The translations under genes and the position numbers were made by a program. A stretch of DNA of 64,000 nt from assembly GCA_963773875.1 (NCBI GenBank), contig CAVZCV010000020.1, positions 294,818-358,817 on the forward strand. The letters run 5' to 3'. This DNA is from Pirellulales bacterium (GTDB taxonomy: Bacteria; Planctomycetota; Planctomycetia; Pirellulales; JADZDJ01). Below, piece after piece: positions 3,478-33,572 of this stretch. The stretch's first letter is position 1. Each line of letters starts with the position of its first letter. A model generated the notes under the pieces. That model did not search any database. It was not told where the DNA came from and worked only from the letters and a program-made list of their open reading frames with translations.

Positions 3478-3978
3478 CTATTGCGGCGCCGTTTGCCCTG
3501 CTTGCCAAACACCACTCCGCCCTCCGCTTTTTTCCTCCAATTGAATGCGGTCAATTACAATCCCACGCTCGGCGCTTTTGCACATGTCGTAGATGGTCAA
3601 AGCTGTTGCGCTGACAGCGGTTAGTGCCTCCATTTCCACGCCGGTTTTTCCAGTGCAATGGACCTCGGCTTCAACGCGAATTGTGGCTTCATCAGGTAAG
3701 CTGAACGACACTTGAACCGAATCGAGCGGGAGCGGATGACACAGCGGGATAAGTTCGGCTGTACGTTTCGCGGCCATGATGCCAGCCAGGCGACCAACCT
3801 CGAGCACATCGCCTTTTGCCAACTGCCGGTCGCGGATCAGCTTTAACGTTTCGGCCTTCATCCGCACCAAGCCGCTCGCCCGAGCCATCCGCTTGGTGAC
3901 CGGCTTGTCGCCGACATCGACCATCCGGCTGGCGCCTTCGTCGTCGAAATGCGAAAGTTGTTTGGTCATGGCGTTCAT
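3478..3978 (-). CDS. moaC: Cyclic pyranopterin monophosphate synthase MoaC
   Basis: [31 protein letters not shown] and KSGGRSG motifs. Confidence 0.97.
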
Positions 3979-4214
3979 TGTAACCCAGCCCCTTTCAAAT
4001 GTGAGGCGGAATGGAATCGGTCAATAAACTACACAGTATCGCCGATTGATCCGCGCCGATAATAATTTCAATCACCCGATTTGCGATTTCTCCTAATTCC
4101 TCGCAGAAAACCACACGTCGATAGGCCCCAGTGAAATTCTCGCAACCACTTCTGTTGTTTTTCTCGAGCGTTTCAACGCACATTTTCGTCTCCGGCACGA
4201 ATTCTAATTTTCAA

Positions 4215-4295
4215 GTGAAATAACTGCAGCGCGCTTTTTCCGATGTCATGGCGTTTTTGTGTTTTCTGACCCCAGTTATTTCACAGTTATTTCAT
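4215..4295. repeat. GTGAAATAACTG motif array, copy A (one inverted copy plus two tandem copies at 11-bp spacing)
   Basis: gtgaaataactg at 4215; cagttatttcac at 4273 and cagttatttcat at 4284; same arrangement at 29741-29811. Confidence 0.8.
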
Positions 4296-4524
4296 GCCCT
4301 CCTCTCTTGGCTGATAAACTATCTCGAAATCGCCGCATCTTTGCCACTGTTTTTTCGCATATAGAAGATTCCTCCTGCCAGGCCTCGGCGCGGTGTCTGA
4401 TGTACGGCCATCGTCCGCCGCGCAAATCATCCCGAGGCTTCCGACCCGTTGCCAGCGTCGCCGGAAGCCAAGTTAAGTTTCAAGTTGGCAAAGGACAATC
4501 CAGGAACTCACACGTTCCATATGC

Positions 4525-4553
4525 ATAGTACTGTACACACGCTCCCGAGTCAA
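4525..4553 (-). promoter_or_regulatory. Putative sigma70 promoter of intergenic element A
   Basis: Minus strand reads TTGACT-17 bp-TACTAT with the spacer ending in TGTACAG; near-identical layout at 29591-29619. Confidence 0.7.
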
Positions 4554-4924
4554 TAGCAAATTTGGGCCATGCGAGAAATGCTGATAACGTTCAAGAAATG
4601 GACACCTAGTTTTTGGAGAGAAATCGCCAAAGGAGTGCACTGTCGTGCCGATTTAGCTCGTTTTCACGGAAAGCGCACGCAGCTGGTCAATAGAATCCCA
4701 GACCGCAAATCTTAGTCAGCGTCCGGTAATCGTTGCGGTCAGTAGCGAGTTCTGTAGCTCGCATATTCCCGCAGGCGTTGCTTGCGGGCCATTGCCAGCG
4801 GCAGCTGGGTTTCGGCACTGTACAGTGGGGCTGCAGCATATGCGTATGATAAACCGCCGGCTGGGGAATCTGGTATACTTGAAACAGCGCCCGTGGTCGG
4901 TAAACTCCTGACAATTTCACGCGC

Positions 4925-29470: not shown

Positions 29471-29590
29471 ATTCTCTCCGCTCCGCCCTTCCGCTGAACC
29501 ACGATTGCACGCCAGGGCTGCGGAAGTGTCGTGCAAAACCGGCGGAATTGCCGCGGATTTAGCGACCTACAAAAAATTGCTCGTGGCCTA

Positions 29591-29619
29591 TTGCCTTTCA
29601 GACACATGTACAGTAATAT
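29591..29619 (+). promoter_or_regulatory. Putative sigma70 promoter of intergenic element B
   Basis: TTGCCT-17 bp-TAATAT with the spacer ending in TGTACAG, as at 4525-4553. Confidence 0.65.
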
Positions 29620-29740
29620 TCAGATGCATGCCTTGGCAGTGTTTTCTGACGAATAAAAGGAGCGCCTTGTAATGACCTCGAACCACCAGACACTAAGCGA
29701 ACAGGCAGCAGGCGGGCCGCATGCTACTTCACCCCAAAAA

Positions 29741-30041
29741 GTGAAGTTACTGCGAAATAACTGCCGCACTTCGCTCGAGAAATGCCGAGCGGAGCGCTGC
29801 GGTTATTTCACTCTGAATCGAGGCGACTCGAGCGGAGAGAGTGAAATAACTCGTTTTACCCGAGGAAAACATGCAGGCCGGATGAGGGCAAGTTGGGCCA
29901 AGATGAAACGTCTGAGCGAAACTGACCGAGAAAACGCGAGTGAATTCAAGAAATGCGATATTGAAATGAAAACGATCAACTCCCATCATTCGAGCAGCCA
30001 GAAAGCTCGTGAAAATCGAAAAGACGCGCCGGTTATTTCGC
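29741..30041. repeat. GTGAAATAACTG motif array, copy B (five direct/inverted copies)
   Basis: gtgaagttactg 29741, gcgaaataactg 29752, ggttatttcac 29801, gtgaaataact 29841, ggttatttcgc 30031. Confidence 0.8.
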
Positions 30042-30049
30042 GGCTGGCG

Positions 30050-30916
30050 TTAATCGCGATTGAGAGACAACACCCAGGCTTCCCAGCGTTTTTGGAAGTC
30101 GGCCATGTCGCGCTCGCCAAGGACGGCTTGCAACGTGTCGTAGCCTGTGGGATCGGTTTTTGCGCTGTCGTGAAAGCTGCGGTAGAACTTTTCCAAGAGG
30201 TCGTGCTGTTGCAGGTACAGGCACAAATAGCGGGCCTGGCCGTAATTCGCGCCGGTGTCGTGATTGTAGAACTGATCGGTCGAGGTGCTGCACAGCGCTT
30301 CGAATGCCGGCAGCCGGCCGGCGCGGATGGTTTGTTGCAATCCGGCGAGTCGCCAGTTCACGAGGCCGACGATCTTGCCGTGCTCTTCGCTCGATTGTTC
30401 GTAGAGCGAGGCCAGGCCTTCATTAAACCACGAAGGGCACTGCGGAAAATTCGTGGCGATGTAGGGGTGCACAATTTCGTGCACCAGCGTGCCGCCGCCG
30501 GTGGCGATGTTCATCACCAAAGCCCGATGCTGCGGCGAGTAATATCCATAGGGCGTGTGCGGCTTGGCGCCGAAGAGTTTTTCCGCGTGCTTTTCGTAGC
30601 TGTCTTTGTCGGCGAAGAGCCAGACATCGATAATCAGCTGCGGATCGCGCTCGAAGTAGCGGTCCTTCAAGCGATCGACCGCCCATTTAACCGTGTTCGT
30701 GGCCCGTTCTTCGACGCGCTGGGCCGGCTCATCGCCAATGACCACGAACGGCGGCTTGACGACGATGGTGAAGGACTCGTCGCCAAGTTTGGCTTTCAGG
30801 GCCTCGATGTGCCGGTCATACTCAGCCTGCGTGAAGGCCAGCGCTGGCCTATTTGCAACGAGCTGGACGCCGAGGATCAAAACTCCGACGACATGCGAAA
30901 TGAGCAGGGTTTTCAT
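30050..30916 (-). CDS. Secreted HExxH zinc-metallopeptidase-like protein (MA clan / DUF1570-like)
   Basis: Signal peptide, TLVHEIVH and WFNEGLA motifs. Confidence 0.8.
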   Translation of the reverse strand: MKTLLISHVVGVLILGVQLVANRPALAFTQAEYDRHIEALKAKLGDESFTIVVKPPFVVIGDEPAQRVEERATNTVKWAVDRLKDRYFERDPQLIIDVWLFADKDSYEKHAEKLFGAKPHTPYGYYSPQHRALVMNIATGGGTLVHEIVHPYIATNFPQCPSWFNEGLASLYEQSSEEHGKIVGLVNWRLAGLQQTIRAGRLPAFEALCSTSTDQFYNHDTGANYGQARYLCLYLQQHDLLEKFYRSFHDSAKTDPTGYDTLQAVLGERDMADFQKRWEAWVLSLNRD

Positions 30917-31149
30917 GGTTGCCTCCGAGCTCATTCTGGCAGCCGGCCACATTTCGGTAAATGTTTGCCGGGCGAGATGATACAGCGGCGTTACAATTCA
31001 CGGCCGTGCGGGTTCAATGGGCTATCTGGCGTCGCCGTGGGGAGAATTGCGAGCCAGGTTTGGCCGGGCTATTCTCGACAGTCTCGCGGGATGGTTATCT
31101 TCCGACTGGGACGGTTGGACTATTTTTCGCAAACACACAACGCTTTTAT

Positions 31150-33572
31150 ATGAATATCGCCTCTCGAAATATTTGGTTGGTCGTGAATTTCGCTGCGACG
31201 ATTTTCGTCAGCGCGTTTTTGCTGTTTCAGATTCAGCCGCTAGTGAGCAAATACATTCTGCCCTGGTTCGGCGGAACGGCAGCCGTGTGGACCACTTGCA
31301 TGCTGTTTTTCCAGACGCTGCTGTTCCTCGGCTATGCCTATGCCCATTTGAGTGAACGATTCCTAACGCCGAAAATGCAAGGTATCGTGCACCTGGCGCT
31401 GATCGTGCTCTCGCTGGTAATGCTTCGCGTGGTGCCGGATGAATCGTGGAAGCCGACCGATAGTTACGACCCCGCCTGGAAGATTCTGGGACTCCTGGCG
31501 GCCAGCATCGGGTTGCCGTACTTCGTGCTCTCCTCCACCGGCCCGCTGTTGCAGGCGTGGTTTGCAAAGACGTTTCCGGGCAAGACACCGTATCGGCTGT
31601 ACGCGCTTTCGAACATTGGCTCGCTTTTGGCGCTATTGAGCTATCCGTTTTTGTTTGAGCGGATGTTCGCGATCAAAGATCAGGCGACGATCTGGTCGAT
31701 CGGCTTCGTTGTGTACGCCGCTTTGGCCGGATACGCCGCTGTGAGTTTGTGGATGATCTTCCGCGACAACCGGCTGTCCCAGATAGCCCGACTGCTCCAG
31801 TCGGAAGCGCCGCTGCCGTTCCGGATGCAAATGCTGCTGCGAGCCGCGAGGTTCCGCAAGTCATCACACCGGCCGTATCAACACCGACCGGCCCACCGCC
31901 GATCCTCCACTACGCCTTGTGGCTCATCCTGCCGGCGATTGCATCGACCGCGCTATTGGCGACGACGAACCATGTTTCCATCGACGTCACGCCAATGCCG
32001 TTCCTGTGGGTCATTCCGCTTTCGCTCTATTTGTTGACGTTTATCATCGCCTTCGATCATCCGCGCTGGTACCGGCCGATTGTGATGTCGATCTTCACGC
32101 TGTGCGCGATCTATTTGATCGGCATGGTGTACTCCGACGATCAATCGGGCATTTTGCTCAAACAAACTGGCGCCCCGGGCCGCGTGCTGCAGGGCATGAT
32201 CAAGTCAGTAAATTGGGTGCAGGAGAAACTCCATGTGGATTCGAAGCACCGCATCGACACGAACGAACCGGACATCAGCTTTATGGGCTACGCGGCGATC
32301 AACTTTGCCGCGCTGTTTGGCATTTGCATGCTGTGCCACGGCGAGCTGGTGCGGATGCGGCCCCATCCGCGGCACTTGACCGCATTTTATTTGATCGATC
32401 GCCGGCGGCGGTGCGCTCGGCGGCCTGGCAGTCAGTTTGATTGCGCCGCGCAGTGTTCGTGACGTACTTCGAATGGAATTTGTCGCTTTCCATCGGGTCT
32501 GGTGCTGGCGTTCGCGGTTATCTTGAGCGTAGTTTGGCGATTCGCGTTTGAGCGTTATCGGCGCACATCGTCGACCGATTCGCTGTGGCTCGTGCCGGCC
32601 ATTGGCGTGCCTATGCTGTTTCTCGCATACTTCAGCGGCCGAGATTTGTACGAGTATTTGAAATCGAATCGGCCGGCCAATGAAACGGTACTCAACCAGC
32701 GGCGTAATTTCTTCGGCACTTTGACGGTCCTCAATCGGGAGAACGACGATCCGGAAGAGGCAGTTCGCAAGTTGATTCACGGCCGCATTACGCATGGCGT
32801 GCAGTTTTTGGATCCGACGTTGCGAGAGTATCCGACATCGTATTATTCGCGCGAAAGCGGCATTGGTTACACCGTGGGCTATTACCACGCCAGCAAGAAG
32901 ATCGACGGCGTGCGACTTGGCACAGTCGGTCTGGGAACTGGCACGATGGCGGTGTTCGTGCGCGACAAAGAAGATCCGAACGCAAAGGGCAAAAACGATT
33001 CGATCCATTTTTACGAGATCAATCCCGAAGTGATCGATATCACCGAGCCCGGCAAATACTTCACGTATTTGCAAGACGCCAAGAAACGTGGCGGCGATTA
33101 CAAAATCACGCTGGGGGACGCGCGGTTATCGCTGGAAAAAGAGGTGAAGGACGGCGACTTTCAGAAGTTTCACGTGCTCGTGCTCGACGCTTTCAGCGGC
33201 GACGCAATTCCGATGCACCTGCTGACCGAGGAAGCGTTTGAGACGTACCTCAAACACATGGCGACCGGCAATGAGGGCAAAGGCGGAGCGGAAGCAGACG
33301 GCGAAGCCGGCGCGATCGCGGTGCACATTACGAATCGCTACCTCGACCTGGAGCCGATCGTGCTTGGCCTGGCCGAGCGATTCAAACTAGGCCACGTGCT
33401 CATTGTGAACGGCAACGGCGGCGAAGCAATGTATTCCTCGGACTGGTTAATTCTCAGCAAGAACAAAGACTTGATTAAAGAACTTTCGCAATATGAAAAC
33501 CCGGAGACTGAACCGAAGAAACCAATTTTGTGGACCGACGGAAAGAGCAACCTGTTCGACGTGCTGAAGTGA
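31150..33572 (+). CDS. Fused membrane / spermidine-synthase-like SAM-dependent methyltransferase (frameshifts near 31770, 32395 and 32480)
   Basis: LPWFGG, YRLYALSNIGS, CHGEL, HGRITHG, GLGTG, YEINP, GDAR and DAFSGD motifs across three ORFs. Confidence 0.85.

Follow-up and report, generated by a model that had tools for sequence, protein, structure and literature searches.

A lineage-restricted family of dispersed, promoter-bearing repeat units with a putative antitermination leader in a Pirellulales genome

Correia, ERIC and BIME-type repeats are 100–160 bp long and carry terminal inverted repeats. In the part of the source that we draw on, a study of putative mobile promoters by Nijveen, Matus-Garcia and van Passel names Correia, ERIC and REPIN sequences as promoter-carrying repeats and describes putative mobile promoters themselves as mostly occurring in pairs, with approximately 92% identity over 50–100 nt upstream of genes (PMC3575422). 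The leaders of ribosomal RNA (rRNA) operons are a further point of comparison; for their boxA signal, the sections of the source used here give the gamma-proteobacterial consensus GYTCTTTAANA (PMC5725501). Here we describe how these systems compare with an element that occurs as copies A and B in a 64,000-nucleotide stretch of a Pirellulales bacterium genome (assembly GCA_963773875.1, contig CAVZCV010000020.1, positions 294,818 to 358,817 of the forward strand; hereafter the window), where a sequence-only reading had reported an unannotated intergenic element with a promoter and a motif array. We read copies A and B as diverged members of a lineage-restricted dispersed family of approximately 135 self-contained, probably Nus-antiterminated units, the repeated words of which would be bound by a dedicated factor, and we judge this reading to be about evenly poised between right and wrong.

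The host genome (G000; 6.07 Mb in 21 contigs) was scanned for cores, defined as a word with up to two mismatches, followed after 11 bp by a second word and, 40–99 bp beyond that, by an inverted one. This returned 135 cores in which two GTGAAAWWAC words stand 11 bp apart (m1 and m2) and an inverted word (m3) follows, mostly 50 or 60 bp on; the spacer is 50 bp in 38 copies, 60 bp in 70, 61 bp in 16, 72–74 bp in two and 82 bp in three, with a few copies at 51, 58, 59 and 62 bp. The element had been described as present twice, which is correct for the window and not for the genome. The view that it forms a dispersed family of no known class was borne out by the census and by Rfam, the search of which had been suggested at the same time: the family is unmatched there, with no match in the window at gathering score, nothing relevant for copies A and B at E-values up to 10, and only 16S rRNA at E-values up to 0.1 in eight loci that hold units. 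The words are nearly confined to the family. GTGAAATAAC occurs 204 times in the genome, compared with nine occurrences of the reversed control word, and at most 12 times in each of 40 relatives, including six times in the same-genus relative G001. There are 403 exact GTGAAAWWAC words, 29 of them outside units, which is approximately the chance expectation (an arithmetic estimate), and the sole outside cluster with at least two words is one more copy of the family. Units with an assigned promoter (99 of the 135 cores) have a median length of 718 nt and together amount to 74.7 kb, or 1.23% of the genome.

Conservation of the words within the census follows in part from the way in which the cores were defined. 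In alignments of the flanks, however, the words reach 90–99% identity amid sequence at 40–80%, and the short and long spacer classes have the words in common and a different spacer sequence. Relative to m1, the long-class copies (n = 89) carry a forward word at −64 to −62 in 77 cases (s0), forward words at 0 and +11, an inverted word at +71/72 in 85 cases and another near +155, and a forward word again at +213 or +234. This 3′ module of approximately 350–450 bp thus holds five to six words in fixed order and orientation; conservation fades 200–260 nt past the first inverted word, and convergent genes typically end 210–295 nt past it. At the two W positions, m2 and m3 match in no more than 30 of the 135 copies, and RNAalifold, applied to 90 aligned 3′ modules, returned only a 5-bp helix with an energy of about −0.4; it is therefore the sequence of the words that is conserved, and nothing indicates retention as pairing partners. 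Moreover, the inter-word distances of 63, 11, 60 and 84 are near whole helical turns and the spacer classes step by approximately one turn, as would fit recognition of the words on DNA.

A promoter pattern consisting of TTG[AC]C, a 16–18 bp spacer ending in a GTACAC-like block, and TAnnAT is found 104 times in the genome. The arrays had been claimed to be linked to the promoter, and the genome scan agrees: a core lies within 600 nt on the same strand after 95 of the 104 promoters, and four of the other nine have a core at 640–775 nt. Seen from the cores, 99 of 135 have a promoter no more than 1100 nt upstream. TGTACAC is the common form of the block, while TGTACAG occurs eight times, always near a core. 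The −35, the −10 and the TGTACAC block are 80–99% conserved, and the remaining spacer and the transcript start vary. Upstream of the −35 there is an A5 tract and, farther up, a T4 tract, in 72 and 66 of 99 units respectively (the A-tract being counted as A4 or longer, 3–16 nt upstream of the −35); A/T blocks in this position resemble UP elements, which are found at strong promoters. The predicted promoter of a typical unit is of the sigma-70 type and near consensus (TTGACW, 17 bp, TAnnAT).

One or two hairpins follow the −10 in the leader. A boxA-like word (TTCTTTGGCAATT, up to three mismatches in 13) is present within 160 nt of 49 of the 104 promoters, in 48 cases at 29–61 nt past the −10, and the same word was found in 170 of 5000 random 160-nt windows (3.4%). 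The 48 leaders with the word have a mean fold of −13.1 kcal/mol, compared with −9.3 for shuffles; in ten aligned leaders 93% of the cells of the first hairpin are paired and two pairs have changed on both sides, and in the second hairpin pairing is kept across quite different sequences. The genome's own 16S rRNA gene, on contig C18, has its own promoter, a hairpin and the boxA TCTTTGACAATT in its leader. As TCTTTGACAATT is also present in the 16S leaders of G001, where the 16S gene was confirmed by Rfam, and of a further relative, G010, it is evidently the boxA of this lineage, and TTCTTTGGCAATT differs from the boxA region of the own 16S leader at two of 13 positions. The combination of promoter, hairpin and lineage-like boxA that characterises an rRNA-type Nus site is found in about half of the copies. 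Furthermore, G000 and G001 each have a unit immediately before the 16S promoter and oriented like it; the promoter and flanks of these two units can be aligned and their bodies have diverged, and G010 has no unit upstream of its 16S promoter. As a separate observation, the 16S gene of G000 (C18:161970-163450) is solitary, with a terminator-like hairpin and then a sulfatase-like gene downstream, and the rRNA genes appear unlinked, since the sole match of a 23S probe is on the opposite strand elsewhere on the same contig.

The part between leader and 3′ module is variable, with 109–745 nt (median 272) from the −10 to the first tandem word. It is a mosaic of GC-rich nested palindromes, to which some copies add long GT-rich and AC-rich inverted arms, and just before the 3′ module AGAC[AC]C words occur at 1.24 per 94 nt, compared with 0.017 genome-wide (approximately 70-fold). 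The nested palindromes recur in many units, for example from C6:621147 onward and on the minus strand of contig C8, and include a CCCCAACGGGG-type hairpin and a module of approximately 200 nt with 18-bp perfect arms; they are similar to the repeats found around the RAYT genes, and we read them as REPIN-like insertions into the units. A further palindromic repeat family (GGCTATTTCCTGTCAG...CCGG type, both orientations) is found upstream of some family promoters, and such repeats stand 400–840 nt upstream of two units, on contigs C1 and C7. In G001, a run of CCAGACAC-type words upstream of a purH-like gene (locus L097, 1440–1502) directly precedes the genuine start codon. Since words of this type precede both this start codon and the 3′ modules, they may be a translation-initiation or leader feature of the genus.

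With regard to genomic context, for which crude gene calls were used, 117 of the 135 cores overlap no gene call, and their downstream gene is co-oriented for 71 and convergent for 46. The flanking genes had been called unrelated, and among 269 flanking proteins the largest paralogue cluster indeed has only four members. Relative to downstream genes of the same orientation, the reading frames are distributed at random (24/27/31), and the frame that passes through the words runs stop-free into a same-strand downstream gene in 11 of 82 cases. A cis-regulator or riboswitch of the 5′ untranslated region was considered and is ruled against by the opposite-strand downstream gene in 46 of 117 cases and by the random frame relation.

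The fixed-gap form of the promoter pattern has 48 occurrences in G000, five in G001, one in G010 and none in the 38 other relatives, the bacterial family of the host comprising only 11 genomes. G001 holds approximately ten units with the same promoter and leader, and their 3′ module is built on TGCGACAAAATT, which has 19 matches in G001 and three in G000; G010 has a promoter–hairpin–boxA unit with GGCAAAATG-like, A-rich words. One unit of G000 (C10:524971-525400), upstream of a DNA polymerase I-like (polA-like) gene, carries TGCGACAAAATT instead of GTGAAAWWAC, so that G000 holds words of both types. When a typical unit was compared by BLAST with the 40 relatives, the sole match was to a flanking gene, in G001. 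No match was obtained in plasmids or phages, two exact patterns were absent from JGI metagenomes, and the matches listed for an exact 17-mer in a species-genome collection were in scattered unrelated taxa, with a sole Planctomycetaceae locus (L005) that has no unit. The literature on Planctomycetes repeats, promoters and boxA held nothing on such a family, supplements aside.

As we reconstruct it, a unit would have four parts: an A/T block and near-consensus sigma-70 promoter with the family-specific TGTACAC/G block beside the −10; a leader RNA with one or two hairpins, followed in about half of the copies by the boxA-like word; a middle part that is mosaic in composition and rich in hairpins, where nested palindromes and CA-rich AGACACC words are found; and the 3′ module with its GTGAAAWWAC words near whole-turn spacings. 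RNA polymerase would start at the unit's own promoter, as both hexamers and their spacing are conserved, and, because the leader resembles the 16S leader of the same genome, hairpin and boxA would recruit NusB and NusE as in an rRNA leader, with elongation then resisting Rho over a long, structured and untranslated body. The words would be recognition sites of a putative dedicated factor acting on DNA, given that they are nearly family-only, kept as sequence and swapped in the sister species. The units would be independent of neighbouring genes and would have spread in this species via a DNA-level route, and we propose that they behave as selfish or domesticated repeat DNA and not as gene-specific regulators.

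A number of results weigh against this interpretation. Transcription, with its start and end, is predicted from sequence features, and of the earlier claim that the element is self-transcribed it is the recurrence of the promoter design with the cores that stands. Co-orientation with replication is expected of very strongly transcribed units, and by GC skew only 25 of 51 units are co-oriented, compared with 559 of 911 genes. Only about half of the promoters have a recognisable boxA-like word, copy B having none and copy A a degenerate one, and in the ten aligned leaders compensating changes in the first hairpin are no more frequent than in shuffled controls. The analysis turned up no word-binding protein and no autonomous master copy, and among the 403 words genome-wide no pair flanks a gene. 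Stop codons are depleted in one of the forward frames that cross the words, a feature not expected of purely non-coding sequence. The copies are also old, with best-partner identity mostly 70–90% and few pairs above 95%, and comparison of the ends of two pairs (93.6% and 85.6% identity), in which unit boundaries were fuzzy, found no terminal inverted repeats or target duplications. No empty site was seen in the orthologous flanks of G001 or in four DNA metagenome runs. In G001 the flanks of copy A, copy B and the purH-linked unit hold no unit, but synteny is broken at all three; the gene downstream of copy A (3478–3978, minus strand), which we take from its N-terminal sequence to be moaC-like (cyclic pyranopterin monophosphate synthase), has a G001 orthologue that does not share a contig with the genes beyond copy A, and synteny thus breaks at the unit. 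The metagenome runs contain the same sequence at low depth, with no contig spanning the unit, and a metagenome relative approximately 97.5% alike contains the moaC/unit junction (3903–4147). As the copies are old and no empty site was observed, mobility is suggested only by copy number and dispersal.

Three other explanations have to be weighed against these data. The units could be genes for structured non-coding RNAs, in which the inverted word pairs one tandem word to form a long hairpin or a two-state switch and the GT-rich/AC-rich arms, visible in several copies, are processing stems like those flanking rRNA. This would account for the unit's own promoter and its leader with conserved hairpins, for the perfect complementarity of m1 and m3 in their commonest forms, for the minimum free energy fold of copy A, where m2 pairs m3, and for the approximately 40% of units that face a convergent gene, as an independent RNA gene might. 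Pairing of the arm before s0 with the stretch that follows boxA is also stronger than in shuffles by 10 kcal/mol or more in 15 of 61 units, although overall real and shuffled arms are not separated (real −52.6, shuffled −48.8). However, there is no covariation between the words, since the agreement at the W positions, which for m1/m3 amounts to 77 of 135, is what base frequencies alone predict for both pairs of words; the alignment-based fold is negligible, the 321-nt RNA of copy A folds no better than shuffles (z = −1.19, with 11 of 100 shuffles folding equally well), Rfam has no match, and spacer classes about one DNA turn apart with words at multiples of a helical turn point to DNA rather than RNA. 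We regard the RNA account as unlikely. The units could instead be host sites and no selfish DNA, evenly scattered, strongly transcribed and protein-bound, either nucleoid organisers, acting as domain boundaries or supercoil barriers, or the operators of one global regulator by which they would all be switched at once. They are more evenly spaced than random, with 115 gaps of median 32.7 kb, a coefficient of variation of 0.67 and three gaps under 5 kb, where exponential spacing would give approximately 14 by an arithmetic estimate; words and promoter elements are kept in place although the copies are 70–90% alike, word positions are phased, and low-copy units of the same design are retained in G001 and G010. 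Yet long gaps are censored by contig ends, and selection against deletions between close repeats also thins close pairs. The words are not tied to any known nucleoid protein, orientation is unbiased relative to replication, and the sister species has approximately ten units and another genus at least one, so that 135 sites are no general need. We therefore find the host-site explanation quite improbable.

The stop depletion noted above leads to the last of the three, in which the 3′ modules are the members of a multicopy gene family and encode a small basic protein of approximately 100–180 amino acids, with a start near s0 (an ATG 67 nt before m1), tandem words that read S-E-I-T-V-K, and promoter, leader and AGACACC stretch as expression signals. 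In 56 of 90 long, 27 of 39 short and one of six other copies, no stop interrupts the forward frame of the words anywhere in the core; the median open span of this frame is approximately 420–440 nt, compared with approximately 60–80 nt in the other two frames. Stops in frames 0/1/2 number 67/44/11 from s0 to m1, 50/67/18 in the spacer and 67/85/40, 131/134/84 and 122/122/66 over the first 300 nt past m3, whereas the frames are equal before s0 (114/114/111) and beyond +300 (115/106/95). The open frame is the one continuous with m1 in all three spacer classes, despite their 1- or 10-nt differences, and the W positions of m2 are mostly AA or TT (86 of 135) and seldom TA (8), which would be a stop in that frame. 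The enrichment of AGAC[AC]C words just upstream, with a similar stretch before a real start codon in G001, and the record of one such open reading frame as a predicted protein also fit a coding module. Against it, a codon-position pattern is absent (entropy 0.72/0.62/0.76 at positions 1/2/3), the ratio of nonsynonymous to synonymous differences (pN/pS) is 0.78 compared with 0.85 and 0.95 for the two alternative frames, the in-frame ATG at −67 is limited to 30 of 135 copies, and the reading frames range from 28 to 1451 codons without a common stop. The inverted word and the conserved bases after it fall in three different frames across the three classes, and in copies A and B alike there is a stop at the second word. 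Pfam gave no match, a search of 5.8 billion proteins found only the query itself at near length, and an AlphaFold2 model of one reading frame with five paralogues was too poor to use (mean predicted local distance difference test score 46.8, predicted template modelling score 0.18). G001 units are open in five of six frames, and the composition itself is therefore stop-poor; since the copies share ancestry, the frame asymmetry may derive from a few founder sequences. A protein-coding module thus has a low probability in our view, and we retain the reading of the family as promoter-bearing, probably antiterminated DNA units with protein-bound words.

Within the window (Table 1), copies A and B rank among the more degenerate members of the family; copy A belongs to the 60-bp and copy B to the 50-bp spacer class, and copy B abuts at its 3′ end a convergent gene at 30050–30952. 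All strings quoted for the two copies by the sequence-only reading were found at the positions it gave, and its layout of two tandem motifs and an inverted copy was confirmed, with the addition that further words lie both upstream and downstream. The motif and the promoter are more abundant in the window than chance would give: the 12-mer, allowing up to two mismatches, has 13 matches in the window, compared with a mean of 3.0 and a largest value of nine in 100 shuffles, and the promoter block TGTACAGTANTAT has two matches where 0.01 are expected. Two of the hairpins that it described in copy A, GGAAC/GTTCC and GGCTTCCGGC/GTCGGAAGCC, appear in the RNA fold, which as a whole is ordinary by comparison with shuffles. 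The copy number of 135, the commoner TGTACAC form, the boxA-like leader and the extra words had not been seen. A 493-amino-acid open reading frame (plus strand) begins inside copy B, with a Shine-Dalgarno-like AAGGAG before its ATG, and runs antisense to the better-scoring minus-strand gene at 30050–30952; it is most likely an artefact of stop-poor sequence.

Table 1. Positions of the parts of copies A and B in the window, and of the Y1-transposase matches that lie near units (C numbers are contigs of the host genome)
Feature	Coordinates	Strand	Details
Copy A, A/T-containing block directly upstream of −35	4554..4570	-	Degenerate form of the family TGGCCCAAAAAGGCCC block
Copy A, predicted promoter	4525..4553	-	−35 TTGACT 4553-4548; 17-bp spacer ending in TGTACAG 4537-4531; −10 TACTAT 4530-4525
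Copy A, leader hairpin H1	4503..4518	-	GGAAC...GTTCC; corresponds to GGAGC...GCTCC elsewhere in the family
Copy A, degenerate boxA-like word	4483..4495	-	TCCTTTGCCAACT; aligns to family TTCTTTGGCAATT
Copy A, mosaic middle	4361..4482	-	GC-rich hairpins (e.g. 4469-4436); one AGACACC word
Copy A, word s0	4349..4362	-	GCGAAAAAAC; ATG before it; 63 nt 5′ of first tandem word
Copy A, tandem words m1 and m2	4275..4295	-	m1 4295-4286; m2 4284-4275; 11 bp apart
Copy A, inverted word m3	4215..4224	-	60 bp past m2 (long class)
Copy A, 3′ tail	4050..4214	-	Extra inverted TTTCAC 4138-4131; ends just short of moaC (start 3978)
Copy B, A-tract and predicted promoter	29570..29619	+	−35 TTGCCT 29591-29596; TGTACAG 29607-29613; −10 TAATAT 29614-29619
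Copy B, tandem words m1 and m2	29741..29761	+	m1 GTGAAGTTAC 29741-29750; m2 GCGAAATAAC 29752-29761
Copy B, inverted word m3	29802..29811	+	50 bp past m2 (short class)
Copy B, 3′ tail	29841..30041	+	Extra forward word 29841-29850; inverted word 30032-30041
Unit-near Y1 match 1	C18:196379-196723		
Unit-near Y1 match 2	C13:87438-87779		
Unit-near Y1 match 3	C15:180376-180714		
Unit-near Y1 match 4	C7:80947-81159		
Unit-near Y1 match 5	C21:36912-37070		
Unit-near Y1 match 6	C6:685305-685553		
Unit-near Y1 match 7	C14:271830-272021		
Unit-near Y1 match 8	C1:7472-7591		

A stronger version of our interpretation, which we consider possible but doubtful, is that an rRNA-style cassette (A/T block, consensus promoter, hairpin and boxA) has been amplified to more than 100 copies as Rho-proof, self-transcribing and self-spacing non-coding units, with the unit upstream of 16S in both species as founder and, at the end of each unit, a phased array of a family-only word that co-evolves with its dedicated protein (GTGAAAWWAC here, TGCGACAAAATT in the sister species). 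Were this true, the family would be a new class of bacterial repeat that borrows ribosomal antitermination and is spaced along the chromosome. In more general terms, approximately 1.2% of a 6-Mb genome would consist of roughly a hundred near-consensus promoters reading into non-coding, hairpin-rich DNA with a boxA signal. If active, the units would tie up large amounts of RNA polymerase and Nus factors at unannotated sites; they would also exemplify a natural use of antitermination beyond rRNA and would give rise to read-through into approximately 70 genes downstream. Since the word has switched between two congeneric species that share the design, the two are a convenient pair in which to look for a new DNA-binding protein and its sites. 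Lastly, the units matter for annotation, since they create spurious long open reading frames, such as the 493-amino-acid frame of copy B (window positions 29672–31153).

The genome contains nine matches to Y1 transposases (RAYT/IS200-like), and by a comparison of coordinates made by hand eight of them (Table 1) lie 0.2–3 kb from a unit, always upstream of its promoter. The ninth (C17:3303-3644) has no unit nearby. Three of the eight form one duplicated subfamily, and two truncated Y1 fragments, both of one duplicated subfamily, directly abut units. The repeats that border the three intact Y1 genes are inverted palindromes of their own kind rather than GTGAAAWWAC words, and there is no conserved gene between the RAYT genes and the units, the intervening genes being mutually unrelated. 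Membership of the REPIN–RAYT system was rejected because the RAYT genes are not flanked by the family words and because the units have two direct words and one inverted word in place of inverted palindrome pairs. A miniature inverted-repeat transposable element (MITE) was likewise rejected, as the two pairs of copies examined lack terminal inverted repeats and no transposase-bearing relative with the same ends was found, since none of the 29 words outside units flanks a gene.

Several known systems nevertheless share part of the design. In the rRNA-operon leader with boxA/Nus antitermination, as given in the portion of PMC5725501 considered here, the order of strong promoter, hairpin and boxA is that of the units, but in the units no rRNA follows; the true 16S promoter of this genome lacks the TGTACAC block that the family promoter has, and BLAST found no similarity of the true 16S leader or trailer to units. 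REP/REPIN–RAYT systems, in the parts of the accounts considered here (PMC3116915, PMC3337134), have hundreds of intergenic copies, inverted short words and vertical persistence in a lineage, as here, and the palindromes in the middle of units resemble those around the intact RAYT genes of this genome; the units differ in that their word is no palindrome and that they are far larger than a REPIN and bear a promoter. Like the units, Correia, ERIC and BIME-type repeats are high-copy, intergenic, promoter-capable, mosaic and hairpin-forming in transcripts, while the units are approximately five times longer, have a complete canonical promoter and a boxA-like leader, and in the two pairs compared show neither terminal inverted repeats nor target duplications. 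The family fails the tested features of MITEs, REPINs and Rfam families. Putative mobile promoters, as far as the consulted part of PMC3575422 describes them, are likewise repeated, promoter-bearing non-coding DNA with unrelated neighbours, no known mechanism of mobility and mostly no Rfam match, and here too similar promoter regions stand beside non-paralogous genes, as judged without applying the published −150 to −50 window. The units differ from them in having approximately 135 copies of approximately 0.7 kb, a leader and a word module, and in that approximately 40% face no gene. With these differences, it is to the putative mobile promoters of that account (PMC3575422) and to mosaic interspersed repeats that the family is closest.

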